From: an uncultured Rhodobacterales bacterium
GTDB lineage: Bacteria; Pseudomonadota; Alphaproteobacteria; Rhodobacterales; Rhodobacteraceae
Assembly (NCBI GenBank): GCA_964391555.1
Contig: CAYMMT010000006.1
Location: forward strand, 6,487-56,885
DNA length: 50,399 nt
Direction of reading: 5' to 3'
Shown here: positions 26,360 to 43,378 of the stretch, one piece after another
Position numbering within the stretch: position 1 is the stretch's first letter
Layout of the letters: every line of letters starts with the position of its first letter
Notes under the pieces: model-generated
Databases searched by the model: none
Seen by the model: only the letters and a program-made list of their open reading frames with translations
What the model was told of the DNA's origin: nothing
Made by a program: the position numbers and the translations under genes

Positions 26360-26367
26360 CGGCGGGC

Positions 26368-27276
26368 ATGCTTCGTTTCGCGGCCCGCCACGGACGCTGG
26401 TGCCTGATCGCCGGTCTGGTCGCAGGGCTGACCCTGCCCGGACTGGCGGGGGCGTTGCGCTCCGCCCTCCCGCATATGATTGCCGCTTTGTTGTTTCTGG
26501 CCGCGTTTCGGGTTGGGCCGCAGGCGATCTTGCGCGGTCTCAGAAGCGATTTCACCGTTGTCCGGCTGGTCCTGATCTTTCAGGTCCTCGCGCCGCTCAT
26601 TGCGCTTGGCGCATCGCACGCACTGGGCGTGTCGGGCTCCACCGCGGCCCTCGCGGCCGTTCTGATGCTGTCTGCTCCCTCCGTCACCGGAAGCCCGAAC
26701 TTTGCCCTGATCATGGGTGTCAGGCCGGAGGCCGCGCTGCGTCTTCTCATGGTCGGGACGGCGCTGCTTCCCCTGACCATCCTGCCGGTCCTGTCCCTGA
26801 TCCCGGATCTCGACACGGGCGCTGTCGTCTTCGCGGCCGGTCGCCTGATCGTCGTTGTCGGTCTGGCCGGTGGCGTGGCGTTCCTGTTGCGCCGGGGGCG
26901 CTGGGCCAGACTGACAACGGCTCAGGAGCAAAACCTCGACGGGGCCTCGGCGATACTTCTGGGGGTTGTGGTCATCGGCCTGATGTCCGCGGTTGGCCCC
27001 TTGCTGACCTCCGCGCCACTTGTTTTCGGAATGTGGCTGGCCTTTGCGGCGGCACTGAACTTCTCCGCGCAGCTTCTGGCTTGGAAAAGCATCGCCAAAT
27101 TGGCCCCGGCAGAGGACCGTCCCGCGATCAGTGTCGTGGCCGGAAACCGCAACATCGCCCTGTTTCTCGTCGCGCTTTCGCCCGACATCACGACCGACCT
27201 GCTAAGCTTCATCGGGTGCTACCAGATCCCGATGTACCTCACGCCCATCCTGTTTCAGCGCTTCTATCGCCGCTGA
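26368..27276 (+). CDS. Integral membrane transporter, bile-acid/Na+ symporter (SBF)-like fold
   Basis: 302 aa from MLRFAARHG, with 8-9 TM helices. Paired motifs SAPSVTGSPNFAL and VVAGNRNIALFL resemble the two crossover helices of SBF/BASS proteins. The assignment is tentative. Confidence 0.5.
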   Translation: MLRFAARHGRWCLIAGLVAGLTLPGLAGALRSALPHMIAALLFLAAFRVGPQAILRGLRSDFTVVRLVLIFQVLAPLIALGASHALGVSGSTAALAAVLMLSAPSVTGSPNFALIMGVRPEAALRLLMVGTALLPLTILPVLSLIPDLDTGAVVFAAGRLIVVVGLAGGVAFLLRRGRWARLTTAQEQNLDGASAILLGVVVIGLMSAVGPLLTSAPLVFGMWLAFAAALNFSAQLLAWKSIAKLAPAEDRPAISVVAGNRNIALFLVALSPDITTDLLSFIGCYQIPMYLTPILFQRFYRR

Positions 27277-29392: not shown

Positions 29393-29653
29393 TCAGAAGA
29401 CGGCGCGGCGGGCTCGGGCGCCGCCGCGCCGGGCGGGTTTGGGCAAGGTCAGGGACAAAGGGCGCAATGGCGCCTCTATCGACGCCTTGAGCAGGTCGCA
29501 GAATACGGCCACTGCCGGGGAGGCCTGCGCAAAGGGAACAGCCGCGCCGTAGGCCCGTTTGGCCTCGCGCCGGTACGCGGCCTCCGGCGGCAGCCAGCCC
29601 AGCCACTGGATATACCCCAATTGGCCCAGTTCCTTCGCTCGCTCAGTGGTCAT
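29393..29653 (-). CDS. Hypothetical 86-aa protein downstream of the cobalamin riboswitch
   Basis: MTTERAKELGQLGYIQWLGWLPPEAAYRRE... has high GC3 from this ATG onward. Its start overlaps the stop of a 39-codon upstream ORF that carries a strong SD. No recognisable motif. Confidence 0.35.
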   Translation of the reverse strand: MTTERAKELGQLGYIQWLGWLPPEAAYRREAKRAYGAAVPFAQASPAVAVFCDLLKASIEAPLRPLSLTLPKPARRGGARARRAVF

Positions 29654-29799
29654 GTATCCTATGTCGAGTTGTGAGATTGTCTTTTCCAGAAGCATCGCGC
29701 CCTCCGCGCAAAGGGGCATGGCGCCGGGAGCAAGGCGTCGGAACTGGTCCTGTCTGGTCCATTTCGTCTCTCCCTCCCTCGGCGCCCCGCCAGGGTTTC

Positions 29800-30000
29800 G
29801 GTGTCTGCGGCGCGCGATATGCGCTGACCGGAGATGGCAGGTCTCCTGACTTGCGGGTCGCAGCTCTCCCGAACCTTCCCGGGCCGCCTTGAAAAGAAGG
29901 CCCAGTGGCATAGCCGGGGTCGCTCACCGCTTACAGTTGCGGGGGCAGTCACGGACTTGGGAAGATCCCGCACCGTGTTCCCTTTTCATCCCGTTGGGGC
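29800..30000 (-). promoter_or_regulatory. Cobalamin (B12) riboswitch
   Basis: The minus strand reads AAAAGGGAACACGGTG...AAGTCCGTGACTGCCCCCGCAACTGTAAGCGG...GCCACTGGGCC...GGCCCGGGAAGG...CCCGCAAGTCAGGAGACCTGCC. It contains the GCCACTG motif (29903-29909) and a canonical B12 box AGTCAGGAGACCTGCC (29836-29852). The outer boundaries are approximate. Confidence 0.9.
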
Positions 30001-30133: not shown

Positions 30134-33100
30134 TTAGGCCGGGGTATCGATGAGGAGGTCCTTGAGTTCGGGAAAATGGAGGTCGGTGACAAGATCGTAC
30201 ATCGACACGAGCCGTCCCGCGAAGGGCTTGTGGTCGGAAAGCCGTTCAAGAAGCGCTCGCAAGACCCCGCACCGATCCGCCGTTTCCACGACAACGCTGG
30301 CGTCGGTTGCGCGGTAGGGACTTTTTTCGTCGAACCGCAGGTCCAGAGGCCAAAGAGCGGCGCTTTCGATCGGTCCCGAAATGACCTCTTGCGCCACGTG
30401 ACTGTCGAGTTCCGCCAGGAGAGAAATGGCAGGCGGATAGAGTTCGGGGTTCAGACCCCGCAGCATGGTGACGTAGTGCCTCAGCTGAAACGAGCTCATG
30501 TCAGTGATATCGGCGACTTCGATCGGCCAGGTTTCGTCGAGACGATAAAACCTCTCCAGGACCGAAAGGGTCAGTGTCCGTTGCCGATACTCGTGCCACA
30601 ACGGCGCGAGGGCGGCCCTGTAGGGCGCGTCGATGAGCATTCCGGTGTCGCTATCCCGGCGCGCCAGCCGGTCGATGTCGGCGGGCTGACCCGCGGCAAG
30701 GCTCAGACCGTTGGCGGCCAGTTGACCGCCGGTCTTGTCCGCTTGATCGTCCCGGGAGCCAAGCGCCCGGGGTATCACCGGGCTGCGGCGATTGGTGGCG
30801 ACAGGGTTCTTGCGGTCGACGGTCGCAAGGTACGTGCCCAACGCCGCACCGACGGTCTCGAAATCCATGTATTCGGCGGCAATCGCAGCGCTGAGCAAAC
30901 CGGAAAAGCCATCGGAATATCCGGCGGAATGGATCTCCGCCGGAGCGACCCCTGGCGTCCAAGGCATGTGATCCGTGCAACGCAAGAGGACGGCAATGTA
31001 GAGCGCGTTTCCGAAGGGGTCCCGCCGGACGTCGTCCTCGAGGCCGATCAGGTCCTTGGAAAAGTCGGGAGAGCCCGCCTCGATTAGGCAGTTCCGCAGG
31101 AATTCCTGCGCGACGTCCGGTGCGGAGACGGCGGCCTTGTCCCACGACCGGCGCAGTTCGTAGGATTGCTCCAGAAGGGATGCCGTTGCCGGCCTCTGGT
31201 CCCTGGCAGGCTCGGCCAGCGCTGGCGCGTCTCCAGCTTCCGGAACTGGGGTGTTGATGAGATCGGAGAGTTCCTCCGCCATGCCTTTCGTGAAAATCTG
31301 GGTCCCGGTCTGCTGGACCGTATCCATCACCCGGCGACTGTCTGCGGCACGATACCGGTCCGGCAGGGCCGCCCGTTCGGCCGGGGACAGATCAAGTCCG
31401 CGCAGGTGACGGATCACCGCGCGCCATGTCACGGGCAGCGTAACCAGGTCACTGCCGAGGTGGCGGTCAAGGCGGTCCGCCAAATCCACCGGGAACTCAT
31501 CCGGCGGATCGGAGATGAACGCGCCGTAATAAAGCGCGTCGAGCGGGTCGTCGCCGGTGTTGCGTGTCTTGAAGAATGCTGCCGCCGTTGCGCAGACCTC
31601 AAGCGCCCGATCCCGCAGATCCTGCTTTCTCGCGCGGGCATCGCCCGTGTCTGTCGCGACGGGACCGGCCAGAAGACCCGGCAGCATCAGACGACGCAGG
31701 TCCGGGATATGGCGCACCTTGTCCAGCTCACCCGGGACGGGATCGACCAGCCAATACTGGTTGCGCAGGCGCATCAGAAGCTCTTCGGCCTCGGAAAGCG
31801 TCAGCGGGTCCTCCGACGTGGCACCCCGGTCGAGGCACGGACCCGCCAGAACGTTGAGGATAATCTCCGGATCTATGATCCGGAGCATGAGGCCGGGGTG
31901 GGCCAGTGGTCTGACCCTGGGGTCGGTGATCCGGTTTAGAATGCGCGTATAGAGGAATATTTGCGCAAATTCGGCTGCAAATCCGCCCTCGGCCTCGAGT
32001 TCCGCAATCAGGCCGTCCACGTCGCGAGGATTGCCGTCGGCATATTTGGCAAAGGCGATAATGGCGAGAGGATGACCGGCCAAGAGCCTGCAGACGGTCC
32101 GCGCCTTGGCCTCGTCGTGAAAAAGCGTGGTATTGGCCGGGTTCAACCGTTGCAGTTCGGCTCTCAGGAGCTTTGCCCCCGAAGGCGGGTAAAGGCCTTT
32201 GAGATGGACCCGGTCCCCGAACCACCGGTCCAGCTCGGCCTCGGTCAGCGGCTCCTCGCGACCGCTGACGATGACCCTCATGCCGGGCAGGTGGTTGAAC
32301 TGCAGGACGCTGAGCAGATCCATGATTTGCGAAACGACCTCATTGCCCATCGCGCGCTCCGGGGCGTCGTCGGGGAACTGGCGCTCCACGACCGCCAACC
32401 TGTCGATCGCTTCGAAAGTATCAAGGATGACCACCATCGACATGTCGGCCAGAGGCCTGGCCCAGTCCTCGTCCAACTTGTCGAGTTCATGCAGAACCCG
32501 GCTGAGTTGATCGAAATTGCTGTGCCTGTTGCCCGACTCGTCCACCTTGTAGAGCGCGATGTCCCGGCGCAGGGACGACAGACCGTCCAGCAGCGCGTCG
32601 TTTCCGTCGGGCGACTGCAATTGCAGATGCGCCGTGATCTGGCGAAAAAGCTCCTGCAGGATTTCGACGGGTTCACCGAGTGCCAACTGCCGCCGATCGA
32701 AATCCAGCAGGACCTGGATCAGATCCGGTTTGCTGCGTTGCCACGCGAGCATGAGGCTCGACAGAAGGGCCGATTTCCCCGCGCCGCCGATCCCGGTGAG
32801 CAGGAGCGGCTTTGCGTTCTCGCTCCGGCCCTTGGCGTGGTGGCTGATCCTGTCGCGCTGTGGCGTAAAGCCAAAATGCCGTCCCGGCATCACCACGCGC
32901 AGGTCGGTGCGGGCCTGCAGTTCCTTGATCTGGGCCGAGGCGAAACGCGAAAGCTCCCGAATTGTCATGGTTCGGTAGGCCATGCGGTCAGTCTTGCGAA
33001 CCTGACGTGTCGCAGTGGCGAGCGCGGGAACGTCTTTCGCAAACTCGGCGGCATCAAGAAGTGCGGCCGCGCGCGACAGCGCCTGTTGCAATGCGTCGAT

Positions 33101-33463
33101 GTCGGCCTTTGTCCCCGGGTCATCAAAGCTGATCCGGTCCATGGTCAGAACCTCGCGCAGCGCCCGGGTCAGCGGATCACCGGGGTCTTGGGGCGCGTCG
33201 TATTCCATGAAGTCCCGCAGGGCGCGGGGGGAAAAGAACTGGTTGAGCGCCGCCCGCCGCGCAGCGGGGTCAAGCTGCCAGCAATAGGTTCCGTCCTGAT
33301 CGATCTTCTCGTCCGCAACCGGGCTCAGGGTGCGCCACACGACGTCCCGGCGGGCGACGTCCCCTTGCGGGAGTTTCAATGCGCTGCACAGGCTCTCGAG
33401 CGTGAAGAGACCCGTCACACTGCCCGCTTTCAGGGCCTGCTGCGCGAGGAACCGGTCGTTCAT
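30134..33463 (-). CDS. NB-ARC/Apaf-1-like STAND NTPase with an unassigned N-terminal (~200 aa) and C-terminal (~520 aa) region (gene C of the protease operon)
   Basis: 1109 aa from MNDRFLAQQ, with an ATGA overlap with gene B. Walker A LLLTGIGGAGKSAL, Walker B MVVILDTFEAID, VIVSGREEP, a GxP motif LAGHPLAIIAF and a winged-helix-like segment. No TM helix or signal peptide. The 33637 start would overlap gene B by 178 nt and was rejected. Confidence 0.85.
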   Translation of the reverse strand: MNDRFLAQQALKAGSVTGLFTLESLCSALKLPQGDVARRDVVWRTLSPVADEKIDQDGTYCWQLDPAARRAALNQFFSPRALRDFMEYDAPQDPGDPLTRALREVLTMDRISFDDPGTKADIDALQQALSRAAALLDAAEFAKDVPALATATRQVRKTDRMAYRTMTIRELSRFASAQIKELQARTDLRVVMPGRHFGFTPQRDRISHHAKGRSENAKPLLLTGIGGAGKSALLSSLMLAWQRSKPDLIQVLLDFDRRQLALGEPVEILQELFRQITAHLQLQSPDGNDALLDGLSSLRRDIALYKVDESGNRHSNFDQLSRVLHELDKLDEDWARPLADMSMVVILDTFEAIDRLAVVERQFPDDAPERAMGNEVVSQIMDLLSVLQFNHLPGMRVIVSGREEPLTEAELDRWFGDRVHLKGLYPPSGAKLLRAELQRLNPANTTLFHDEAKARTVCRLLAGHPLAIIAFAKYADGNPRDVDGLIAELEAEGGFAAEFAQIFLYTRILNRITDPRVRPLAHPGLMLRIIDPEIILNVLAGPCLDRGATSEDPLTLSEAEELLMRLRNQYWLVDPVPGELDKVRHIPDLRRLMLPGLLAGPVATDTGDARARKQDLRDRALEVCATAAAFFKTRNTGDDPLDALYYGAFISDPPDEFPVDLADRLDRHLGSDLVTLPVTWRAVIRHLRGLDLSPAERAALPDRYRAADSRRVMDTVQQTGTQIFTKGMAEELSDLINTPVPEAGDAPALAEPARDQRPATASLLEQSYELRRSWDKAAVSAPDVAQEFLRNCLIEAGSPDFSKDLIGLEDDVRRDPFGNALYIAVLLRCTDHMPWTPGVAPAEIHSAGYSDGFSGLLSAAIAAEYMDFETVGAALGTYLATVDRKNPVATNRRSPVIPRALGSRDDQADKTGGQLAANGLSLAAGQPADIDRLARRDSDTGMLIDAPYRAALAPLWHEYRQRTLTLSVLERFYRLDETWPIEVADITDMSSFQLRHYVTMLRGLNPELYPPAISLLAELDSHVAQEVISGPIESAALWPLDLRFDEKSPYRATDASVVVETADRCGVLRALLERLSDHKPFAGRLVSMYDLVTDLHFPELKDLLIDTPA
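32771..32794 (-). other. Walker A codons (GIGGAGKS) of the STAND NTPase
   Basis: The reverse complement reads ggg atc ggc ggc gcg ggg aaa tcg. Confidence 0.9.
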
Positions 33464-35508
33464 TGCTCCGCCTCGTCCGTGGTGTCGAACAGGTCGGACG
33501 GCATATGGTCGACCACGAAGCGCGACATGGCCTGCAAGGGGGCCTCTTGTTGAGCATAGGAGCCCATGGTGCGGGACAACAGCTCGATGGCCGTGTCGTC
33601 CACGGCCGCACCAAGCGCCGTGCGCTGGCGAAACCATGTATCAAAGAGCTGGTCGAAATTGCTCAGATCGTCGGTGTCCGAGATCGTGCTCGTCACCACA
33701 TTGGCGCTGTTCACACCGCCGATCGCGTTTTCCCTTGGCAGACCGATCAAGACCACCCGCAAACCGGGGATCTGTTCAATCCGGTCATAAAGCGTGGCGA
33801 GGTATTCGCGGCCCGAGGCGTCCGATAGGCGATGATGTTCGAGGTCGTCGATCATCAGCCAGACCGACTGGTTGGGAAGTCTTTCCCGCATCTTGCTGAC
33901 CAGGATGTTGACCAGTTCCTGCACATAGGCCGCGGTGGTGGTCTGCGGCGTCTTGGGTAGGCCCGAGACAAGATCGGACGCGAAACTGTCCATCGTTTCA
34001 CTGACGAAGCTGAGCGCATCGGCCTCGGTCTCGCCGGCACGAAAAACGATGTGTTTGTGCTCTGGCGTCCGGAAAAGGCCCTCGATGATTTCGGTGGTAA
34101 AGCTCTTGCCCGGTTTCCTAACCGGCGTGCCGCCGGGTTCGTAGTGCACCATGAGGATGCGCTTTTTCGGATCCTCCCACATCTGCTGCAGCTTCCCCAG
34201 CAGGTCCCTGCGTCCGAAAAGCGGCTTGACCCCGTCCACGCATCCCAGGGGCGGGGCCAGACTGGCCGAGCGCCTGATCCGGTCGAAACTGCCCTTCGCC
34301 GCCAGATCATCGGCTATGTGCTTCAGCGAAATCGCCACATTCATGAAGAGCTTCGGCCCGGTGTCGACGTCCCGATACGCGATGCCGACGTGGTGCAGGC
34401 CGATCGGTTCCGCGATCTCGTTGATCAGGAGCCCGCCGGACGAACCTTGTGCGGTGGGCGCTTCGTGAAACAGGCGCACGTCCTTGCGGAACGAAAACTT
34501 CATGTCGCCCATCGTGATGGTCTGGTCGAGGCCCGATGGATGGTGCAGCGCGATGGCGAAACTCGGGAAGGCCTTCGGAAGCTTTTCGAGGTCGTACCAG
34601 CCACGTTGCAGTCCCGGCGCACTGTCGAGGCGCAGAACGGCATAGTCGAGGTTGCCTGCCATCTCCTGCAGGAAGGCGTTGCGAATTGCGTTGTCTTCCC
34701 ACCAGCGGTTTGGGGCGTTTTCGGGCTGCGCCTTGCCCATGGGGCTGGATGCGATGATCTGGTCCCCGGCCACCGGATGCCATGCGCCGGTAGCGGACTT
34801 CGTGCCCGTCGTCTCCGAATAGTCGAACCAGCAGGTGAGCGTCGTGGGGTCGAAAGGACCACTCGCAAGGTCATCCATGACGTGCTGGTTGGTGATCACC
34901 GCCGAGGGCCCGATCAGAAATCCGGTGCCCAGAGGCACGATGTCCTCGCGGTTGTTTTCGGCGACAATCCGACAAAGGCGCCGCCGCGCCTGGATGATCG
35001 CGGGCAGGACGTGGCCGGGATCCACCCAGGTCGGAATGTCGCCATGGGCCTGAGGGGTTGCGAGGGTCGCGTTCTGTGGCGTGGCCCGGGGCAGAAGCTG
35101 CGCGACCGCGTTTCCACCGACGCAACCGACCACGCGTTCCATCAGCTTGCGCCGGGTTTCGGCCGTCCCCTTGGCCGGGGCCCCGGCCGGATCGAACAAG
35201 CCCGCTGCAACCGCGCCGGCCATGAAAGACAGGACATGCGCGCCGTCGGGCAGGGATCCAAGGGCGAGCGCGAGGGCATCCGTATCCCTGGCCGGATCGA
35301 GCGCGCCATAGCCGGAGCGATCGAGGCCGGAGGCCACCGCGTAAAGAAACCCCGGGCACGCCGATCGCGTCCCGCCCTGCACCACCCACCTGTCGAAGTA
35401 CGACCGCACCATGCCACGGAAAAACGCCAGCCCCTCGGTCAATGCGATCATGTCCTCGGGTCGGACCCCGTCGACGCCGTCCCCGTTTTTCGTGGTCCCG
35501 CCCGTCAT
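33460..35508 (-). CDS. Trypsin-like serine protease fused to a degenerate P-loop NTPase-like module (gene B)
   Basis: 682 aa. Chymotrypsin-fold triad context GTGFLIGPSAVITNQHV (His209), LDYAVLRL (Asp288) and GSSGG (Ser357). C-terminal half: FGRRDLLGKL...GGTPVRKPGKSF (Walker-A-like with an insertion) and VWLMIDDLE (Walker B). No signal peptide. Confidence 0.85.
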   Translation of the reverse strand: MTGGTTKNGDGVDGVRPEDMIALTEGLAFFRGMVRSYFDRWVVQGGTRSACPGFLYAVASGLDRSGYGALDPARDTDALALALGSLPDGAHVLSFMAGAVAAGLFDPAGAPAKGTAETRRKLMERVVGCVGGNAVAQLLPRATPQNATLATPQAHGDIPTWVDPGHVLPAIIQARRRLCRIVAENNREDIVPLGTGFLIGPSAVITNQHVMDDLASGPFDPTTLTCWFDYSETTGTKSATGAWHPVAGDQIIASSPMGKAQPENAPNRWWEDNAIRNAFLQEMAGNLDYAVLRLDSAPGLQRGWYDLEKLPKAFPSFAIALHHPSGLDQTITMGDMKFSFRKDVRLFHEAPTAQGSSGGLLINEIAEPIGLHHVGIAYRDVDTGPKLFMNVAISLKHIADDLAAKGSFDRIRRSASLAPPLGCVDGVKPLFGRRDLLGKLQQMWEDPKKRILMVHYEPGGTPVRKPGKSFTTEIIEGLFRTPEHKHIVFRAGETEADALSFVSETMDSFASDLVSGLPKTPQTTTAAYVQELVNILVSKMRERLPNQSVWLMIDDLEHHRLSDASGREYLATLYDRIEQIPGLRVVLIGLPRENAIGGVNSANVVTSTISDTDDLSNFDQLFDTWFRQRTALGAAVDDTAIELLSRTMGSYAQQEAPLQAMSRFVVDHMPSDLFDTTDEAEQ
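33709..34221 (-). other. Degenerate P-loop NTPase-like module of gene B (approx. aa 430-600)
   Basis: A PGKS(F/T) motif and an hhhhDD Walker B about 85 residues apart. Boundaries are approximate. Confidence 0.55.
34309..34956 (-). other. Trypsin-like peptidase domain of gene B (approx. aa 185-400)
   Basis: His/Asp/Ser motifs as listed for gene B. Boundaries are approximate. Confidence 0.7.
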
Positions 35509-35517
35509 CGCGCCCCG

Positions 35518-38322
35518 TCAGTCCAGAACGCCGGTATCAAAGACGCCATCACCGACGGACAGGACCGCGTCAATGTCATGGGCGTAGTTCTGGGACAGCG
35601 TGCCACCGCCGAAATGCAGACCGCAGAACTCCATCGCGCCATGCAGGGAGATCACGGCGGAGCCGGAATTGCCCGCCAGCGTCGTGGCATCGTGAGTGAA
35701 GGTCCATGCCCTGGTATCCCCGCTCACGGTACCGGGGCGCGACATGACCTTGCCGGGGCTGAGGTATTGCTTGCCGTATTCCTCGCCATAAAGCTCGTCG
35801 ATACGGTCCCAGAACGGCAGGAAGTCATCACTGCTTGAGGCCGGACCGCTGCTGCCGCTGGGCCGCGCCGGGTATCCCGACAAAAGGATGTCCGTCAGGG
35901 ACGGGTCGGTCATCGACACGAGCGTGGTATCGAGCGGCAGGGGCGGGGGCTCGTGACCGTTGTCGGTGTTCATCGCGACCACCGCCATGTCGAGCTTGCC
36001 CAGATCCACCAGCCGTCCGATGGGTGATTTGCCCGCCGTGATGATGTCGGTCAATTCGTAGCGGGTGGTCTCATCCTCGGCTTCGGGGTCAAAGATGATC
36101 GAGGCGTTTCGCCGTTTCAGGAACGCCTGATCGCCGGGGGCGGCGGGCAGCCCGTCGACAAAGGTATCGATGACGTGGCGGTTGGTCATGACCCGTCCGT
36201 CGGCCATGACGAATCCGGTCCCCGCATGAGCCCAGGTCCCATTGGGCATCTGCACATCCACCCGGCCCACGGCAGCCGTCAGCCGCTGCCACCGGCGGCG
36301 CGTGGCGACAAGGATGGAGGCCCAGTTTTCCAGTCGGGGGTCCCGGATTTCGCTCCCGTCGGCCTTGACCCTCACCGCGGGCCGCCCGGTGAGCCTGACC
36401 AGCGCTTCGATAGTCGCCCGTTGCTCTTCGGGGACCGCGTCGGGCAGGGCCGCATCGTCCGCCAACGCCGACAGCAGCGCATCGAACCGCCGCATCGCTT
36501 CGTTTTGGGTCTCCTGGTTCACGAGGTTTCCCGCGGCCTCCTGCCGTTTGGACAGGGCCGACTGGACCTGATCCATCACGGATTGGGTGCCTTCGGTCCG
36601 CAGGGTTTCCACCGCGGTCTCCGCGCTCAACTCGGCGGCGCTCTCCAACGTGCGGTTGCCGCGCAGCGCCAGGCGGCGGAATGTCTGGTCGAGCGGCAGT
36701 GGCGGCGTGGCCGGCGCACCGATTGCCGCCGGGGCCGGAAAGACACCCGGCTGGGCCAGGCTGATCCGGGATGCGAACTGAGGCGAAGGCGCCGGGGGCA
36801 GGGCGGTTTCGAGGCGCCCGGAAAACCCCTCTCCGGCTCTGATTTGCCAGTCCAGCGCGATGAAGTTGGCCTCGGCTTCAAAAGCGGTCCCGGCGAAATC
36901 CTGTCCGAAGGCCGCGAGGGCCGGACTTGAGGATTCCGTCGGGGCGGGTGCGCCGGGCAGGGCGGCCAAATCCGTGGCGAGGAGCCTTTCGGCATCCACG
37001 ATCCCGGCTCCCATGTTGGTGGCGTCCCAGCCCGGCGGGGTCTCGGCGGTGTGTCTCAGGGCCAATCGAAACAGGTCATTGACGGTAATCTGCCGGTCTG
37101 CCGCGGCCTGCCGGATCGCGTTCCCCCCGAAGCGTTCGATCCAGAGCGCCGCGACCCCGGCCGTCAACGCCACCGCGAAGGACGTGCCTTGCCCCCGCGC
37201 ATTCACATCCGCCAATTCGCCGGGCGAAGGCTGGTGCCCCGGCGGGACCGCGACACGTCGGGCGACATACACGTTTTCGCCCGGCGCGGAGACATCGACC
37301 GTCGGACCCGAACAGGATCCTTTCCACTTCCTCTTGTCCTTATCGACCCCGGCGATAGCGATGACGTTTGCGGTGTTGGCCGGAAAGGTCACGTTGCCCA
37401 CGCAATTGCCCGCGGCCGCCAGCACGATCATTCCGCTCTCCACCGCGCGCCTGACGGAGCGGTTGATCGAGCGCGACCACAAGCCGCCAAGGCTCATCGT
37501 GACGATCGCGCAGCCCTGCCGGCGGGCATGGTCGATCCCGGACGCAATGGCCCGACCTGACAATCCGATCACCACACGGTTCATCACCCGGATCGGGATC
37601 AGTGTTGCGCCGCGCGCCGTGCCGGTGACGTGTCCGGACGGACGGCTGATGGCCACGCTCGACGTTCCCGTTCCGTGACCGGGAGAGGCCATGTCCGGGC
37701 TGAGCGGGTCCGTTGGATCGGCCCGGTCGGCAAGGAAATCGTAGCCCCGAGCGACGTCCAGCCCGCTATGCAACTCGCCATGGGTCGCCACGCCGGTATC
37801 AGGCTGGCCGATCAGGACGCCCGCGCCGGTCACGCCGAACCGGGCCTCCGCCTGTGGCACCTTCATCATCTTGCGCGCCCATTCGCTGTCATCCGACCCG
37901 TCGGCCTGCGATTGGCAACGCCGCCAGACCGCTTCACCGATACCTTCCGTCGCCCTTGGCGCGGTGAGGAGTTCGGAATAGGGGGCCTCGATCGCCGGGA
38001 TCACCGCGTCGATATCCAGAGCCTCGCGCAAGTCCCCCGCCTCCTTGAGCAGGAGTTCCGGCGATTGCTCCCGCGGCAAATTCGGAAACTGGAGGATGAG
38101 GACTTCGGGCGCGTCTTCGTCGGAGAGCGTGAAGAGATCAAAGTTGCCCGCGCCAAGCAGGCTTTCCAGCCGTGCCCGTTCCGCCTCCACATTCGGTGGC
38201 TCCGCGTATTCCAGCTCGAATGCCAGAATGTCCTCCGGCATCGCGCGGCTGTTCCGGCGTTCTCCGAAACGCGCGGCCGCTTTCAGTAAATCGAGCATTC
38301 GATCCCCCATACTCTGGCCCAT
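35518..38322 (-). CDS. Dual serine protease: N-terminal subtilase (S8) domain plus C-terminal trypsin-like domain (gene A)
   Basis: 934 aa. S8 triad motifs LIGQPDTGV (Asp175), SPGHGTGTSS (His216), AAAGN (Asn305) and GQGTSFAVALTAG (Ser381). A long Ala/Pro-rich linker spans aa ~445-640. The trypsin-like part has GTGFVMADGRVMTNRHV (His716), LDMAVV (Asp778) and AGNSGSAV (Ser886). No signal peptide. Confidence 0.85.
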   Translation of the reverse strand: MGQSMGDRMLDLLKAAARFGERRNSRAMPEDILAFELEYAEPPNVEAERARLESLLGAGNFDLFTLSDEDAPEVLILQFPNLPREQSPELLLKEAGDLREALDIDAVIPAIEAPYSELLTAPRATEGIGEAVWRRCQSQADGSDDSEWARKMMKVPQAEARFGVTGAGVLIGQPDTGVATHGELHSGLDVARGYDFLADRADPTDPLSPDMASPGHGTGTSSVAISRPSGHVTGTARGATLIPIRVMNRVVIGLSGRAIASGIDHARRQGCAIVTMSLGGLWSRSINRSVRRAVESGMIVLAAAGNCVGNVTFPANTANVIAIAGVDKDKRKWKGSCSGPTVDVSAPGENVYVARRVAVPPGHQPSPGELADVNARGQGTSFAVALTAGVAALWIERFGGNAIRQAAADRQITVNDLFRLALRHTAETPPGWDATNMGAGIVDAERLLATDLAALPGAPAPTESSSPALAAFGQDFAGTAFEAEANFIALDWQIRAGEGFSGRLETALPPAPSPQFASRISLAQPGVFPAPAAIGAPATPPLPLDQTFRRLALRGNRTLESAAELSAETAVETLRTEGTQSVMDQVQSALSKRQEAAGNLVNQETQNEAMRRFDALLSALADDAALPDAVPEEQRATIEALVRLTGRPAVRVKADGSEIRDPRLENWASILVATRRRWQRLTAAVGRVDVQMPNGTWAHAGTGFVMADGRVMTNRHVIDTFVDGLPAAPGDQAFLKRRNASIIFDPEAEDETTRYELTDIITAGKSPIGRLVDLGKLDMAVVAMNTDNGHEPPPLPLDTTLVSMTDPSLTDILLSGYPARPSGSSGPASSSDDFLPFWDRIDELYGEEYGKQYLSPGKVMSRPGTVSGDTRAWTFTHDATTLAGNSGSAVISLHGAMEFCGLHFGGGTLSQNYAHDIDAVLSVGDGVFDTGVLD
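35578..36270 (-). other. Trypsin-like peptidase domain of gene A (approx. aa 685-915)
   Basis: H-D-S motifs in chymotrypsin-fold order. The His716 codon cac is at 36177-36175. Confidence 0.7.
36988..37845 (-). other. Subtilase (peptidase S8) domain of gene A (approx. aa 160-445)
   Basis: D-H-N-S motifs in canonical subtilase order. The Ser381 codon tcc is at 37182-37180. Confidence 0.75.
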
Positions 38323-38592
38323 CCCTTGACGCAGCGTAACAGAGGGATTTCAGGCCGTTAAGGATTTTTGCACGTCCTGATTGAGTCGGTTGTCATCGAT
38401 TGGGCCGGGTTGCGCGGGGCTTCGGCTACAAAACCTGAATTCAGTTAAGGCGCTGATAAAAATAGTTTAATGAAGGTTTTCAATGGAAGTTGACGTAGGG
38501 TCCTTGCCATCAATGAACGGTGGATTGTACGCTGAAAACACTGCTGCAATCCGATTTCGACCGTTAACACAATTCAATTGAGAGGACGCATT

Positions 38593-40035
38593 ATGACCGT
38601 TCGAGTGCGACAGGATGTTTATGCACTTCCATCAGGAGACATGACGCTGGATTGGTACCGGCAGGCCGTGGCCCTGATGCAAAGCCGAGGCCTTGATGAC
38701 CCCACAAGCTGGTGGTGGATCGGCGCTGTCCACGGCCGACCTCAACCGCCGCAGTTCCCGCCTGCACCGGTCGGCGCGTCCGCCTTCTGGGATCAATGCC
38801 AGCACCAGACGTGGTTCTTCCTGCCGTGGCATCGCGGATATCTCGCCGCATTCGAGGCGACGGTTGCCAAGGCGGTCGAGGAATTGGGGGGGCCAACCGA
38901 CTGGGCTCTGCCGTATTGGAATTATTCCGAAAGCCTTGTCACGAACCCGGAGGCCCGTCGCCTGCCCCCCGCCTTCCGCAGTCCGAACCTGTCCGACGGA
39001 TCACCCAATGCGCTCTTTGCGCCGCGCGGCGCGGACGCAAACGGCGAGTTCGGGCTTCGCAGCGTCGATGTCTCGCTCGACGCGTTGACCCAGAGTGTCT
39101 TTACGCCCGTGTCGGGGGTTTCGGCGGGCTTCGGTGGGCCGAGCACCGGGTTTTCGCATTTCGGCATGGCCAGCGGTGCGCTGGAAAACATCCCCCACAA
39201 CGTCCTCCATGGCCGGATTGGCGGTTGGATGGGAAATCCCAACACGGCCGCTTTCGACCCGATCTTCTGGCTGCACCACTGCAATATCGACCGGCTCTGG
39301 GAGGTCTGGCGCGACGCCGACCCGGCCCATCTGAACCCCGCCGACCCCGACTGGCTGGCCAATGTGCCGTTCGAGTTGCATGATGAAGACGGCACGCCCT
39401 TCAGTTTCACCAGCGCCGAGATGGAGAACACGACAACCGTGCTCCATGGGTATCAATATGACAGCGTGCCCCCGCCGGCGGTTGTCGTGGCCGGCGGTCC
39501 GACAGGAGGCGTAACCGAAATGGCTGACCTGGAGAGCCCCCCTGAACTTGCCGGTGCGTCCGAGGCCCCCTTGCCTCTGCGGGGCGACCGGACCCCGGCC
39601 AAGGTCCGCATCGACACGGCCGGGCTTGACCGGATGAGCGAGGGGCTGCTCGCCCCGAGCGTCAAGGTCTATCTGCGGCTGGAAGGGGTCAGGGGGACCG
39701 GTGTGCCGGCGGACTACGATGTGTTGATCGACCTCGAAGGGGACGGGATAGAGCCGATCCAGGTGGGCGTGCTGTCGACCTTTGGTGTCGCGAATGCGAG
39801 CGATCCGGAGTCGGACCACGGTGGCGTTGGCATAACGCAAGTCTTTGATATCACTGCCTCGGCCGAGCGGCTTAACCTTACGGACGGCAGCGCATCCGAA
39901 TTGAACGTGAGTTTTCATCGCGTCGCACAAGGCCCTGTTACCGAGATGGCCCTGCCCCTTGTCGACGGGGGCGACGTCCCTGCCGAAGCGGCCTCGTCCG
40001 TGGAGATTGGACGCATCGGCGTCTATTTCGAATGA
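38593..40035 (+). CDS. Tyrosinase / polyphenol-oxidase-like type-3 copper protein with a C-terminal extension
   Basis: 480 aa from MTVRVRQDV, with a GAGAGGA RBS. CuA His in AVHG, CQHQ and PWHRGYL. CuB His in IPHNVLHG and FWLHHCNIDRLW. A Pro/Gly/Ala linker (aa ~296-335) is followed by a ~145-aa extra domain. No signal or Tat motif. Confidence 0.9.
   Translation: MTVRVRQDVYALPSGDMTLDWYRQAVALMQSRGLDDPTSWWWIGAVHGRPQPPQFPPAPVGASAFWDQCQHQTWFFLPWHRGYLAAFEATVAKAVEELGGPTDWALPYWNYSESLVTNPEARRLPPAFRSPNLSDGSPNALFAPRGADANGEFGLRSVDVSLDALTQSVFTPVSGVSAGFGGPSTGFSHFGMASGALENIPHNVLHGRIGGWMGNPNTAAFDPIFWLHHCNIDRLWEVWRDADPAHLNPADPDWLANVPFELHDEDGTPFSFTSAEMENTTTVLHGYQYDSVPPPAVVVAGGPTGGVTEMADLESPPELAGASEAPLPLRGDRTPAKVRIDTAGLDRMSEGLLAPSVKVYLRLEGVRGTGVPADYDVLIDLEGDGIEPIQVGVLSTFGVANASDPESDHGGVGITQVFDITASAERLNLTDGSASELNVSFHRVAQGPVTEMALPLVDGGDVPAEAASSVEIGRIGVYFE
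39598..40032 (+). other. C-terminal extension domain of the tyrosinase (aa ~336-480)
   Basis: It lies beyond the copper-binding core, after a low-complexity linker. Beta-rich-looking sequence (VKVYLRLEGVRGTG...YDVLIDL...VSFHRV...IGVYFE). Boundaries are approximate. Confidence 0.5.
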
Positions 40036-40826
40036 CCCTGTCGCGAGGGGTGCCCGCGCGATCGGGCCCCCCGATCTTTCGAACGGATATCCTGGCAAAC
40101 CCGGGCCTGTCCGTGCCCTTGGGATTGGCGGCGCTGGCCTGGCTGGCGCTGGGCCTGTTGGCGCGGAGCTCGGGGGGTCTTCCCCTTTGCATCGGTGGCC
40201 CGAACGCGTTCGGATGGCAATTGCAATCCGCGTGGGTCGCAGAGGTGACGTGTCTTGATCCGATGATCGCGGTGCGTTGGGCATTGATGGTTTTCGCGAT
40301 GATGTTGCCCGTTGCGGCGCCTCATTTCAGCGTTGCCGTGGCCAAGACGCGGCCGCGCCACCAAGGGGTCGTTCTGGCAGCGGCGCTGATCTCTTATGTG
40401 GTGGTCTGGCTGGCGTTGGGAGTGCCCTACCTCGTGCTCTTCGTGATCTCGGCGGCCATCGACGGCGCATCGCCCTGGCCCTTGGGTCCTGTCGGGGTCT
40501 TTGGCCTTGCGATTTTGTGGAGCCTTTTGCCTCTGCGCCAATCCGCTTTGCGGCGGTGCCATCGGGTCCCCGCCTTTTTTGGCGGCGGTCCAGCGCAGGC
40601 CCAGTCCGCTGCCAACTGGGGCGCCGGCCTGGCCGTCGATTGCGCGGCGGTTTGCTGGCCTGCCATGGCCGCGGTGATGCTGTCGGGGCAGGGGATCATG
40701 GGGATGTTCGTCGTGACCCATGTCCTGTTGTCCGAACGCCTCGCCGAGCGTCCGCGGAAGCCGTTCACAACCTGGCCGCTCGCTTTGTTGGCCTGTGCTG
40801 CGGTCGTCAAGTCCGGGCTCGCCTAG
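40032..40826 (+). CDS. DUF2182-like predicted metal-binding integral membrane protein
   Basis: 264 aa with about 6 TM helices. The WALMVFAMMLPVAAP motif and conserved Cys/His (RRCHRVP and DCAAVCWPAMA) resemble DUF2182. ATGA overlap with the tyrosinase stop. Confidence 0.6.
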   Translation: MTLSRGVPARSGPPIFRTDILANPGLSVPLGLAALAWLALGLLARSSGGLPLCIGGPNAFGWQLQSAWVAEVTCLDPMIAVRWALMVFAMMLPVAAPHFSVAVAKTRPRHQGVVLAAALISYVVVWLALGVPYLVLFVISAAIDGASPWPLGPVGVFGLAILWSLLPLRQSALRRCHRVPAFFGGGPAQAQSAANWGAGLAVDCAAVCWPAMAAVMLSGQGIMGMFVVTHVLLSERLAERPRKPFTTWPLALLACAAVVKSGLA

Positions 40827-41110: not shown

Positions 41111-43378
41111 GTGCAGCCCGACAACGACGCCATGTTGACATTTGCCCGCTTCGGTATCCGCCTGTTCTGGCTGCGGCAGGTGATGTTTGTCGGCGCGACG
41201 GTGATCACGTCGGCGTATCTCGAAAACGCGATGCCGATCATTCTGTATCTCGTCTGCCTTGGCGCGGAACTGAGCGAGGTCCGCCTGTCTCACGGTGTTC
41301 TTCGGGAACAGGTCCTGTCAGAGGACCGCCTTCGCCAACTGGTCCGGCACCACGGCTGGGTCGCCGTTTGGAGCGCCACCGGAGTCAGCGTCTATGCAGT
41401 CCTTTCCGCATGGATGGGCCCGCCGGAATACCTATTTGTTCCAATGGCCTACCTATTTTCTGCCGCACTTTATGCGACGATGTTCAACCATCAGATCAGC
41501 CAGATTCTCCTGCCCCGGATGATGATCTATTCGGTTGGCTTTCTGCTCATCGCCGGCCTTGGCCTGACCTCGGTCGGATCGGACCAGCTTCTGCTGGGCT
41601 TTGCTCAGTTCCTCACCTTGGTCTCGGCGGCACTGTTCATCGCCATCAACGCCATCGTCATGCGGCGCAGTTATACAGACCGTCAACGGCAACTGCGTGA
41701 GGCCGAAGAACGGGAGGACCGCCTGCTGAAGGAAATCAGGGACCGTCAAACGGCCGAGGACGCCCGGCACAGCAGCGATCAGCGCTTTCGGACTCTTTTC
41801 GAGAACGCTCCGATCCCGATCCGGGAAGAGGACCTGTCCGGCATGAAACGGCTGATTGATCAGGTGAATCTGCCCGACCCGCAGGACTTTGGCCGGTTCA
41901 TTGACGACAACCCCGACTTTCTGAGGGAATGCGCCGACGCAATCGTGGTGGTCGACGCCAATCGTGCCTCGCTTCTGCAGCATGGCTACGCCGAAAAGAC
42001 AGAGATGCTGAAACACGTTGTGCGCGAGCTCGCGCCCGCAGCGCAAGACGTTGTCCGCATGACGGCCACGGCCTTGAACGCCGGCGACCCCGGACGCAGC
42101 TACCAGACCCGGATTCGCCGAACCGACGGTGAGGAGCGGACGGTCGCCGCCACCTGGTCGGTCCTGCCCGGCCACGAAGACACCTATGCCCGGATCCTGC
42201 TGTGTTCCATCGACATGACCGACCGGCTCGCCGCCGAAGAGGCGCTGCTTCAGGCGCAGAAGATGGAGGCCGTCGGGCAACTGACGGGGGGCGTCGCCCA
42301 TGACATCAACAACCTGCTGACGGTCATTCGCGGCAATGTCGATCTGTTGGAGTCCACCATTGATCTGGATGGCTCCCTGTCTGAACCGATCAAGAGCGCG
42401 ATCGACCGCGGGGCCGAGTTGACGCGGGGGCTTCTCGCCTTTTCCCGCAAGCAACCGCTATCGCGACGGACGTTCGAACTGGGCGAGCACATCCGCCGCA
42501 TGACAACCCTTCTCCGCCGGACACTGGGCGAGGAAAACCTCATTGAGATCGACATCCCCGACGATCTCTGGCCCGTCTTTGCAGATGCCGCCCAAGTGGA
42601 GGCGGCGCTTCTGAACCTCGCTCTAAATTCGCGGGACGCCATGGTGGATGGTGGGGTCTTGACGATTTCCTGCCGCAACCTCCCGATCGATACGGGCAAT
42701 GAGATGGAGTTGGAGGCCGGGGACTACGTGGTGCTGAGCGTGGCCGACACCGGGATCGGCATGGATGCTCAAACCCGCAGTCGCGCCATTGATCCGTTTT
42801 TCACGACGAAGGAGCCGGATGCCGGCACGGGGCTGGGGCTGTCCATGGTGTACGGTTTTGCCAAGCAATCCGGCGGAACCCTTCATATCGAAAGTACGCC
42901 GGGGGAGGGGACTGCGATCTCACTTTACCTTCCAAGGTCCACACAGGGCGCGGTCGCGGTCGCTCAATCCGACGATACCGAGACGCATGCAGAGGCCCGG
43001 GGGCAGACGATACTGGTGCTCGAGAACGACGACGGCGTGCGAAGTTTTCTCACCCGCCTGCTGGAAACCAGCGGCTACGAGGTGCTGCAAGCCGACAGCG
43101 CCGAAACCGCTCGGGACGTCGTGGCCGGCGCCTCGCGGATCGATCTGCTGTTGTCGGACATCATGCTGCCCGGCGGGACTCGCGGTCCCGAGTTCGCGCG
43201 GGAGATGCTTGACAGGAACAACGCGCTGCCGGTGATCTTCATGTCCGGTCGGCCAAGCGAGATCGAATCCGCCGCTTCTGTTGGCTTCGGCGATGCGTCG
43301 GTTTTGGCCAAACCCTTTACCAAGGATGCGCTTCTCGGGCGCATTTCCAGAAGCCTTGCTGCGCGGTCGGTCACCTGA
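41111..43378 (+). CDS. Hybrid sensor histidine kinase (membrane region, PAS, HisKA, HATPase, receiver)
   Basis: 755 aa. N-terminal TM helices, a PAS-like region, H-box GGVAHDINNLLTVIRGN, N/G boxes (LNLALNSRDAM and GTGLGLSMVYGF), and a C-terminal receiver (ILVLENDD...LLLSDIMLPG...KPF). The alternative start is ATG 41132. Confidence 0.85.
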   Translation: MQPDNDAMLTFARFGIRLFWLRQVMFVGATVITSAYLENAMPIILYLVCLGAELSEVRLSHGVLREQVLSEDRLRQLVRHHGWVAVWSATGVSVYAVLSAWMGPPEYLFVPMAYLFSAALYATMFNHQISQILLPRMMIYSVGFLLIAGLGLTSVGSDQLLLGFAQFLTLVSAALFIAINAIVMRRSYTDRQRQLREAEEREDRLLKEIRDRQTAEDARHSSDQRFRTLFENAPIPIREEDLSGMKRLIDQVNLPDPQDFGRFIDDNPDFLRECADAIVVVDANRASLLQHGYAEKTEMLKHVVRELAPAAQDVVRMTATALNAGDPGRSYQTRIRRTDGEERTVAATWSVLPGHEDTYARILLCSIDMTDRLAAEEALLQAQKMEAVGQLTGGVAHDINNLLTVIRGNVDLLESTIDLDGSLSEPIKSAIDRGAELTRGLLAFSRKQPLSRRTFELGEHIRRMTTLLRRTLGEENLIEIDIPDDLWPVFADAAQVEAALLNLALNSRDAMVDGGVLTISCRNLPIDTGNEMELEAGDYVVLSVADTGIGMDAQTRSRAIDPFFTTKEPDAGTGLGLSMVYGFAKQSGGTLHIESTPGEGTAISLYLPRSTQGAVAVAQSDDTETHAEARGQTILVLENDDGVRSFLTRLLETSGYEVLQADSAETARDVVAGASRIDLLLSDIMLPGGTRGPEFAREMLDRNNALPVIFMSGRPSEIESAASVGFGDASVLAKPFTKDALLGRISRSLAARSVT

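Follow-up and report, generated by a model that had tools for sequence, protein, structure and literature searches.

A three-gene operon joining a STAND ATPase to serine proteases in a Rhodobacterales bacterium is a probable member of the CARD-NLR class

Three adjoining genes of an uncultured Rhodobacterales bacterium join an NLR-like STAND ATPase to several serine-protease domains. Do they form a system of their own, or do they belong to a known one? A preliminary description had favoured the first answer, an undescribed and unnamed system. The known systems to be compared are the CARD-NLR family (Wein et al., bioRxiv 2023, PMC10312443; Nature 2025), LypABC (Banks et al. 2026, PMC13236601) and the NucA-peptidase system (Kaur, Burroughs, Iyer and Aravind 2020, PMC7159879). 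We analysed a stretch of DNA of 50,399 nucleotides, called here the window. The genes are the following.

35518-38322, minus strand: gene A, an ORF of 934 aa with an S8 subtilase and a trypsin module like LypC or 'protease 1'.
33460-35508, minus strand: gene B, an ORF of 682 aa whose helical N-domain precedes a trypsin-like protease and a divergent P-loop NTPase, LypA-like.
30134-33463, minus strand: gene C, an ORF for an NLR-like STAND ATPase, LypB-like.

A, B and C are real genes and form a conserved operon. The ORFs and the junction sequences agree with the tight packing on the minus strand seen at the outset. The A-B spacer is 9 nt long (TGA-CGGGGCGCG-ATG), and B and C share an ATGA stop/start overlap at 33460-33463. 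Counted from the ATG that overlaps the B stop, C has 1109 aa. The trio is found in 39 of the 53 loci that contain B, and most of these loci come from species-representative genomes, mainly of Alphaproteobacteria. Its range covers Rhodobacterales, Rhizobiales, Azospirillum, Sphingomonas, Beta- and Gammaproteobacteria, Actinomycetota and Longimicrobium, and its flanks vary from locus to locus. This is far beyond chance, because the same A-B-C set is kept in dozens of genomes. The co-location of the three genes in other genomes, a check proposed at the outset, was found.

The surroundings of the operon are transport and metabolism genes, and Pfam matches of the neighbours place it outside any defence island. 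NucA is absent from the 50-kb window (tblastn with NucA). The same search, together with the Pfam matches of the neighbours, gave no gasdermin, phospholipase or endonuclease there. An ORF of 172 aa lies 3' of C (29393-29911). We rejected it as a part of the system because it has no Pfam match and is not conserved in the related loci. A scan for promoters and terminators of the operon gave counts no better than in shuffled sequences. The three products had been described as free of signal peptides and TM helices. This agrees with a Kyte-Doolittle scan, in which the 19-residue windows of all three proteins stay below a mean of 1.6, and with their N-termini, none of which is signal-like.

Gene A contains two protease modules.

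37045-37827, minus strand: subtilase domain of A, aa 166-426 (D175, H216, N306, S381; Pfam Peptidase_S8, 9e-29).
35575-36660, minus strand: C-terminal module of A, aa 555-916, a linker region and a trypsin domain (H716, D778, S886; PADLOC).

Pfam places Trypsin_2 at residues 701-895 of the second module (1e-9). The catalytic residues first read from the sequence are conserved among 43 aligned homologues: D175, H216 and N306 in 42 each, S381 in 41, and H716, D778 and S886 in all 43. The PADLOC model PDLC03014, labelled 'subtilase', matches the S8 domain (5.3e-11). PDLC03010 matches the trypsin module over nearly the full length of the model (1.5e-22), and it also matches stand-alone protease relatives (9e-27 to 3.5e-30). 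Residues 555-916 are homologous to stand-alone proteases of 384-418 aa (L007-L009; related loci are cited by number) and to trypsin-NucA fusions in related operons (L003). The S8 subtilase occupies the effector position, where relatives have the NucA endonuclease. The homologues of A align from residue 9, therefore its true start may be M9 (38298).

Gene B comprises three parts.

35086-35460, minus strand: N-terminal bundle of seven helices, aa 17-141, at the position of the CARD-like domain (AlphaFold2 model).
34396-34929, minus strand: trypsin-like (S1) protease domain with the triad H209/D288/S357 (Pfam, alignment).
33463-34221, minus strand: C-terminal P-loop module, aa ~430-682, with the motifs PGKS and W..DD (hhalign, AAA_16).

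B homologues are numerous (855 representatives at E<=1e-30), and PADLOC models match B-type proteins (7e-11). Trypsin_2 is found at residues 194-371 (7e-9). The triad proposed earlier for this domain is again well kept in 54 homologues (H209 in 53, D288 and S357 in 54). Among solved structures, glutamyl endopeptidases, DegS and FAM111A are nearest to it. The C-terminal module had been called a degenerate P-loop. It is indeed divergent, and hhalign relates it to the nucleotide-binding (NOD) module of C (probability 78%, E 1.8e-5, 187 columns), while AAA_16 matches 5 of 28 B family members. However, G467 and D554 are present in all 54 homologues and K468 in 44 (R in 7), so the P-loop is relaxed rather than lost.

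The AlphaFold2 model of B has an overall pLDDT of 83.8, and of 86 in the N-domain, with helices at 17-24, 31-45, 54-63, 75-84, 89-101, 112-130 and 132-141. Foldseek with the full model against the PDB returned trypsin folds only. With the N-domain alone, nothing came below E=1 in the PDB or among viral models (BFVD), although Foldseek is possibly insensitive for small helical bundles. This search includes no match to a Death/CARD fold in the PDB, though 8SS1 and 8SRZ are reported as deposited (PMC10312443). The HMM profile of the N-domain found solely artificial helical repeats and noise among PDB sequences and Pfam. Pfam bDLD2 (PF20707) matches one of 28 B members (E 0.021), and the B of the window is itself unmatched. 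The B of an Azospirillum relative (L021) had no PDB match by phmmer, 8SS1 included. Finally, a cluster look-up of distant B relatives of ~592-599 aa, aimed at LypA, gave no useful names.

Gene C was divided as follows.

32864-33463, minus strand: N-terminal domain of C, aa ~1-200, of no known family, kept among close homologues.
32054-32860, minus strand: nucleotide-binding (NOD) module, aa ~202-470 (Pfam, family alignment).
30137-32053, minus strand: C-terminal region, aa ~471-1109, presumed sensor (identity comparison).

The NOD motifs were read correctly and in the right order by the preliminary description, which expected an NB-ARC-like protein. The motif GIGGAGKS (K230) is retained in the family alignment. 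In 57 C homologues, K230 and S231 are kept in 56, D348 and E351 in 57, R402 in 56 and P465 in 53. At profile level, however, the NB-ARC label was not supported. While Peptidase_S8 and Trypsin_2 matched the proteases as foreseen, C gave only sub-threshold P-loop/STAND models in Pfam and no match to the NB-ARC profile. NACHT was the best of these models, with 24.4 bits where the cut-off is 26.7, and AAA_16 was another. A word-index search found 15 homologues of C. Among 15 family members, AAA_16 matches 14, NACHT 10, nSTAND1 five and NB-ARC one (0.0024). Compared by sequence with solved structures, C gave P-loop-level matches only, such as Cdc6 and Ras. Beyond the NOD module, C carries ~640 aa, with weak TPR matches in one family member only. 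C is the part where identity to relatives falls fastest, and its C-terminal region is the fastest-evolving.

[quoted passage not shown] Profiles of the N-domains of A, B and C and of the A linker were compared by hhalign for a shared adaptor domain on the EAD/Death principle; none was found, all probabilities being below 3%.

The related loci connect the operon with operons that carry NucA. This nuclease occurs in at least 14 of them. It stands directly after C in L008, L020, L031, L034, L050, L054, L055, L059 and L060, and it is fused to trypsin in L003, L021, L022, L026 and L032. The gene order of L026, B-C-trypsin-NucA, is the LypABC order. One further protein (P0013) has a C-like STAND module fused to a trypsin domain.

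We conclude that the operon probably belongs to the CARD-NLR class, whose STAND/protease systems serve immunity or cell death and include the Lysobacter gasdermin system and Caulobacter LypABC (probability about 0.72); this placement comes from architecture, from the intermediates L008 and L026 and from PADLOC models. C presents an NLR-like STAND ATPase: it has a helical N-domain, both Walker motifs (A and B) intact and a long C-terminal region. In B, aa ~430-682 supply a divergent C-terminal ATPase, like that of the CARD-protease LypA. The second trypsin-like protease, free or effector-fused in the class, corresponds to A residues 555-916. A dedicated death effector (gasdermin, endonuclease or phospholipase) is not encoded within the window. 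Parts of the operon also match PADLOC models that bear the labels 'nacht', 'subtilase' and 'trypsin-like'. Hence, the locus represents a system type that is already described and partly tested, and the claim of an undescribed system falls; what may be new is confined to the repeated association with a neighbouring tyrosinase. Other identities were rejected. A comparison with IetAS had been drawn at first, and PADLOC finds neither IetA nor IetS in A, B or C; its sole IetS match, a weak one, is an S8 protein of L115 (1e-4). For Avs and for retron RT-protease systems, the PADLOC matches are merely marginal.

The initial scheme, with C as sensor, B as adaptor-protease, A as protease effector and cell death or abortive infection as outcome, all inside the cell, fits the published CARD-NLR family. 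C would be the NLR-like sensor, and its N-domain would hold B. Its NOD module would bind and hydrolyse ATP and drive oligomerisation. The fast-evolving C-terminal region may sense a phage- or GTA-derived protein, or a perturbation of the cell. B, as adaptor-protease, would dock on C through its N-terminal helical bundle, and its trypsin domain would turn active on the assembled complex. The degenerate NOD-like module of B may bind nucleotide or co-assemble with C. A would be the executioner, with a trypsin module comparable to 'protease 1' or LypC fused to the S8 subtilase. Once activated, it could degrade cellular proteins or mature a downstream effector, and cell death or lysis would follow. 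Work on LypABC and on the Lysobacter system is the basis from which we infer how activation proceeds from step to step, that B touches C and that the outcome is lethal.

The downstream effector could lie next to the operon.

38323-38592, no strand: intergenic region from which A and the tyrosinase gene diverge (alignment, repeat search).
38593-40035, plus strand: cytoplasmic tyrosinase with a C-terminal DUF7868, candidate linked effector (Pfam; no signal peptide).
40032-40826, plus strand: membrane copper chaperone of the PpoB2 type that partners the tyrosinase (PF09948; several hydrophobic segments).

Under a protease-activated cascade, signalling would pass from C to B to A, the S8 domain, the trypsin domain or both would remove DUF7868 from the tyrosinase, and toxic quinones or melanin would form. 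We regard this as a tentative possibility. It extends the CARD-NLR explanation and does not exclude it. The tyrosinase-DUF7868/PpoB2 pair, divergent from A in the window, is beside system parts or co-operonic with them in at least ten other loci. The divergent arrangement recurs in L170 and L171, with a tyrosinase 74% identical, and in L003/L004, L012, L015 and L018. However, it may be a single inherited juxtaposition in one alphaproteobacterial clade. Alignment and repeat search of the intergenic region found no conserved motif, operator or convincing promoter. Co-directional arrangements are C-Tyr-PpoB2 in L100 (gap of 14 nt), Tyr-PpoB2-B-C in L135 (gap of 4 nt and overlap of 8 nt), A-B-C-TrypNuc-Tyr-PpoB2 in L032 and Tyr-PpoB2-S8-NucA in L115. 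S8 genes also adjoin the tyrosinase in L133, L147, L163 and L165/L166.

The L100 tyrosinase fills the slot directly after C, which is the slot of NucA in other loci. It also has PPO1_DWL, the middle domain of plant polyphenol oxidases, where this segment precedes a cleavable C-terminal shielding domain. Nevertheless, a lid role for DUF7868 is speculative. Of 80 tyrosinase-DUF7868/PpoB2 loci from metagenomes, about 70 have no system part nearby, the genome scan places a tyrosinase in just 4 of the 39 A-B-C loci, and our literature search found no link between tyrosinase and phage defence. A bolder reading, which we hold to be rather unlikely, would have the pair serve CARD-NLR/NucA-peptidase systems as an alternative effector module, with an S8-ended cascade that strips DUF7868 and starts quinone or melanin chemistry in the infected cell. 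If this were true, prokaryotes would have a counterpart to the arthropod prophenoloxidase cascade, and the effector would be of a type unnamed in the CARD-NLR literature consulted. The analogy with arthropods is functional only. Both would have a recognition step, a serine-protease cascade and a type-3 copper oxidase, possibly a zymogen. The arthropod cascade is extracellular and this one intracellular, no homology of sensor or proteases is implied, and cleavage of the tyrosinase is hypothetical here.

GTAs are common in Rhodobacterales, to which the closest relatives of the operon belong. So, the operon could be a lysis module co-opted for GTA release, not for phage defence, as LypABC in Caulobacter crescentus. 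LypABC has the same make-up of B-like, C-like and trypsin-effector proteins and is required for GTA-mediated lysis (PMC13236601), and the present locus, like lypABC, lies outside a defence island and looks chromosomal. Even so, we consider this role quite improbable. The window has no GTA or phage genes, and Rhodobacter capsulatus frees its GTA by holin-endolysin, according to Banks et al. (PMC13236601). Moreover, the relatives extend to Actinomycetota, Longimicrobium and Bacteroidota, and L169 has an element-like context. Therefore, mobile defence genes fit this spread better than a GTA role.

Finally, S8 and trypsin-like proteases are frequently secreted, and RefSeq gives the Ruegeria pomeroyi copies plain names ('S8 family serine peptidase', 'trypsin-like peptidase domain-containing protein'), but an origin of the trio as ordinary secreted or housekeeping proteases beside an unrelated ATPase is scarcely credible, being already contradicted by the conservation of the trio despite changing flanks and opposed by the missing signal peptides and TM segments, by the translational coupling of the genes and by B, which itself joins a protease to a STAND-like NTPase.

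The value of the finding is mainly the correct filing of the operon as a CARD-NLR-type system. The S8-fused form looks common in our sample (39/53 B-containing loci). One such copy lies on the megaplasmid of R. pomeroyi DSS-3, and this could make the S8-fused form practicable as a model. A functional tyrosinase link would provide a new effector class based on oxidative cross-linking chemistry. It could also reveal the downstream target of the proteases, a question still open for LypABC.

Among the known systems, the NucA-peptidase ('NucA-trypsin') system is System 3 of Kaur et al., a computational prediction only (PMC7159879). The operon may fall within this network. The system is mainly alphaproteobacterial and has several trypsin-like peptidases and sometimes an S8 peptidase. 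In some operons a STAND NTPase has a Death-like domain and trypsin as fusion partners, and the authors suggested that the system works as a proteolytic cascade (PMC7159879). The operon has the S8 protease and the order helical domain-trypsin-NTPase, but bDLD2 is undetected in B. Its trypsin domains are present, whereas the defining NucA (Endonuclease_NS) is missing from the window.

LypABC is a second system to compare. LypA (CARD, trypsin and divergent ATPase, 592 aa) resembles B, and its N-domain binds that of LypB (PMC13236601). LypB (N-domain, ATPase and TPR-like repeats) resembles C, with the Walker A lysine at K230 in both. The trypsin module of LypC resembles the C-terminal half of A. 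Both hosts are alphaproteobacterial. However, the order here is LypC-like, LypA-like, LypB-like (A-B-C), B is ~90 aa longer than LypA and has a larger N-domain, and LypC has a C-terminal endonuclease where A has an N-terminal subtilase. GTA release is the role of LypABC.

According to Banks et al. (PMC13236601), DefenseFinder uses the name CARD-NLR, and it has yet to be established how these systems are activated and how they finally kill. Members are the gasdermin system of Lysobacter enzymogenes, the Pedobacter system and a 'three-gene operon' class with Azospirillum sp. TSO35-2 as its type example. The Lysobacter and Pedobacter systems confer phage protection, and RIIB is the trigger of both (PMC10312443). 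The operon differs from the family as follows: an S8 subtilase stands in the effector position, where the preprint names gasdermin, endonuclease and phospholipase (PMC10312443), and the Death/CARD fold of the N-domain is unconfirmed for B. Both have an NLR-like ATPase that begins with a helical N-domain of ~150-200 aa, unassigned to any family, and ends in repeats, which are putative in C. They also share a trypsin-like protease that starts with a helical domain and another trypsin-like protease that is often effector-fused. All are encoded in one operon, and the system is cytoplasmic with an abortive-infection logic.

The three minus-strand genes of the window are best read as a member of the known CARD-NLR family, with a subtilase in the effector position. 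This is a family of STAND/protease systems in immunity or cell death, recently characterised in Lysobacter and Caulobacter. Likening the operon to the published descriptions, we give this reading a probability of about 0.7. The genes are:

30134-33463, minus strand: gene C, ORF of 1109 aa, STAND ATPase
33460-35508, minus strand: gene B, ORF of 682 aa, trypsin-like domain and P-loop module
35518-38322, minus strand: gene A, ORF of 934 aa, subtilase and trypsin-like domains

A gap of 9 nt separates A from B, and the B stop overlaps the C start as ATGA, so the tight packing first described is borne out. In Pfam, A presents Peptidase_S8 at 166-426 (9e-29) and Trypsin_2 at 701-895 (1e-9), and B presents Trypsin_2 at 194-371 (7e-9). 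C gave STAND or P-loop models below threshold only (NACHT at 24.4 bits, short of its cut-off of 26.7, and AAA_16). The preliminary description had expected the two peptidase families, which were found, and NB-ARC or a related STAND model, of which NB-ARC was not found. Among 15 members of the C family, AAA_16 matches 14 and NACHT 10, versus one for NB-ARC. The NB-ARC label is therefore unsupported at the profile level. An NCBIfam search of the three proteins gave nothing specific beyond Pfam. No hydrophobic segment or signal-like N-terminus was found in them, in line with the claim of cytosolic proteins devoid of signal peptides or TM helices. Alignments of A with its homologues begin at residue 9 of A, which makes M9 a possible true start. 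An ORF of 172 aa (29393-29911, minus strand), 222 nt downstream of C, has neither a Pfam family nor a counterpart in the related loci. It probably lies outside the system and is perhaps not even a gene.

A word-indexed search returned only 15 relatives of C, and 81 of B. In a full HMMER scan, the B profile matched 855 representatives of 50%-identity clusters at E<=1e-30, so the B-type protein defines a sizeable family. We also scanned the contigs of one genome per GTDB species (185,579 species genomes) with a pattern from the B alignment. It returned 79 loci from the best 80 of 97 relatives, and their domains were mapped with phmmer. From these best 80 relatives, at least 53 loci (a lower bound, window counted) carry a B-type gene with trypsin and P-loop, and 39 of the 53 hold the full trio of A (S8 and trypsin), B and C in the gene order of the window; contig ends cut several of those that lack it. 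The main hosts are Rhodobacterales, Rhizobiales, Azospirillum and Sphingomonadales. Others are Lampropedia, Aromatoleum, Tahibacter, Arthrobacter, Ilumatobacteraceae, Longimicrobium and one Flavobacteriales MAG. The genes flanking the trio vary between loci. The catalytic and nucleotide-binding residues singled out earlier hold up. When 43 sequences of A, 54 of B and 57 of C are aligned, they are invariant or nearly so, except for the B Walker lysine (retained in 44/54).

Identity of the window proteins to those of the nearest related loci (L169, L170, L171)
Tyrosinase, divergent from A: 74% to L170/L171; absent from L169
A: 70-72% to L170/L171; 62% to L169
B: 57-63% to L170/L171; 52% to L169
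C: 51-53% to L170/L171; 40% to L169

This gradient, lowest in C, fits a fast-evolving sensor. Ruegeria pomeroyi DSS-3 carries a copy of the trio on its megaplasmid (NC_006569.1, 216248-224325; SPO_RS20860, SPO_RS20855 and SPO_RS20850). Its B gene was matched in two pieces and has a short annotation, the 5' part being covered by an antisense 'hypothetical protein'. A frameshift or a mis-called start may account for this.

The C-terminal 380 residues of A form a self-contained module. More distant operons (Catenuloplanes L007, Spirosoma L008, and L009) have it as a stand-alone protease of 384-418 aa, and in trypsin-NucA fusions (L003) it makes up the N-terminal half. The P-loop module of B aligns with the NOD module of C (hhalign probability 78%, E 1.8e-5, 187 columns), and by this profile similarity it is a diverged relative of it. 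In the AlphaFold2 model of B (pLDDT 83.8), a helical N-domain is followed by a trypsin fold and an alpha/beta P-loop domain. A confident model of residues 1-160 has seven helices (pLDDT 86). The Death/CARD fold, which defines the N-domain in this family, was not recovered for B by Foldseek or profile searches. Foldseek, possibly weak on small helical bundles, gave no match below E=1 against the PDB and viral models, and profiles matched nothing among PDB sequences and Pfam; across the family, bDLD2 matched one of 28 B members (E 0.021). These N-domains are poorly similar in sequence, according to Wein et al. (PMC10312443), and a crystal structure was obtained for one from Azospirillum (PMC10312443). 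In one C homologue (P0013, 1484 aa, Logan contig), a trypsin domain is fused to the C-terminus of the C-like STAND ATPase. This sensor-protease fusion supports a physical coupling of STAND and trypsin.

The effector slot changes between loci. A NucA endonuclease gene directly follows C in nine loci (L008, L020, L031, L034, L050, L054, L055, L059, L060), and NucA is fused to a trypsin domain in five more (L003, L021, L022, L026, L032). One of these, L026, has the gene order and composition of lypABC. There is no NucA in the window. Distant four-gene versions carry a protein of 334-543 aa before the two proteases (L007 6047-7051, L008 86-1393, L009 5164-6795), presumably in the position of the Lysobacter gasdermin gene. 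These proteins had no PADLOC match and no confident Pfam match, with a weak VWA_2 in L009 only. PADLOC models matched proteins of the window and of related loci as follows:

PDLC03010 'nacht': A trypsin module, 1.5e-22; its stand-alone relatives, down to 3.5e-30
PDLC03014 'subtilase': A S8 domain, 5.3e-11
PDLC03017 'trypsin-like': B-type proteins of L008 and L054, 7e-11 and 4e-7

The three models come from one numbered series, and we infer that they describe accessory proteins of a gasdermin-type system.

The part of the finding most worth pursuing is the association with a tyrosinase. Divergent from A lies a pair of genes (38593-40826, plus strand), followed directly by a kinase gene:

38593-40035, plus strand: cytoplasmic tyrosinase with C-terminal DUF7868
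40032-40826, plus strand: PpoB2 membrane copper chaperone
41111-43378, plus strand: hybrid histidine kinase/response regulator

The pair keeps this divergent position beside the system in L170, L171, L003/L004, L012, L015 and L018. Elsewhere it is tightly packed and co-directional: C-Tyr-PpoB2 in L100 (14-nt gap, the slot held by NucA in other loci), Tyr-PpoB2-B-C in L135 (4-nt gap, 8-nt overlap), A-B-C-TrypNuc-Tyr-PpoB2 in L032 (Actinomycetota) and Tyr-PpoB2-S8-NucA in L115. A metagenome scan with the tyrosinase alignment found parts of the system, or a related S8 gene, in 8/80 tyrosinase-DUF7868/PpoB2 loci; most of the 80 stand alone. The B-type loci mapped in the 185,579 species genomes are few (53, a lower bound), and by rough reasoning the adjacency is unlikely to arise by chance. 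Part of it could reflect shared ancestry inside one alphaproteobacterial clade. The tyrosinase is a putative zymogen whose DUF7868 may be cut off by the protease cascade. In L100, the tyrosinase has PPO1_DWL, the middle domain of plant polyphenol oxidases, which in those enzymes lies before a cleavable C-terminal domain. Our literature search found no paper tying a tyrosinase to bacterial defence.

The operon could serve in phage defence, or in GTA release as in Caulobacter. The window lacks genes of phages, GTAs, mobile elements or defence; the neighbours are TRAP and CitMHS transporters, metabolic enzymes and the hybrid histidine kinase. For a 329-aa ORF (26287-27276, plus strand) between the TRAP genes and CitMHS, neither a Pfam match nor a counterpart in the fetched loci was found. 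In L169 (1-22097), a closely related operon, with A 62% identical, lies among VapE-like, HTH_17, WGR and 1825-aa DEAD/UvrD helicase genes. Such surroundings resemble an integrated element and differ from the metabolic neighbourhood of the window.

The CARD-NLR model is also the likely mechanism. The variable C-terminal region of C would sense a trigger, and C would oligomerise with ATP. The helical bundle of B would dock on the C N-domain, and B would be activated on the complex. A would be the executioner, its trypsin module carrying a subtilase where relatives have a nuclease, and the result would be cell death or lysis. The initial reading of C as sensor, B as adaptor-protease and A as effector is essentially right. 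The parts of the operon, their conservation and their linkage are observed directly; the activation order and contacts would follow by analogy with LypABC and the Lysobacter system.

The claim of an undescribed system was wrong. The architecture was foreseen by Kaur et al. 2020 (PMC7159879) in a predicted "NucA-peptidase" system, found mostly in Alphaproteobacteria. This combines several trypsin-like peptidases with, in some cases, an S8 peptidase; some operons add a STAND NTPase that is fused to trypsin and a Death-like domain, and a proteolytic cascade was proposed. The architecture of the window operon also matches the Lysobacter gasdermin system, with two trypsin-like proteases and an NLR-like ATPase, whose homologous systems have endonuclease or phospholipase effectors in place of gasdermin (Wein et al., PMC10312443). 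The LypABC operon of Caulobacter was dissected by Banks et al. 2026 (PMC13236601). LypA consists of CARD, trypsin and an ATPase without canonical Walker motifs; LypB, of an N-domain, an ATPase with Walker A K230 and TPR-like repeats; LypC, of trypsin and endonuclease. The LypA CARD binds the LypB N-domain. Lysis depends on the serines of both peptidases and on the Walker residues of LypB, and the LypC endonuclease is dispensable (PMC13236601). Component by component, LypA matches B, LypB matches C, and the trypsin part of LypC matches the C-terminal half of A. However, the trypsin module is fused to a subtilase in A and to an endonuclease in LypC.
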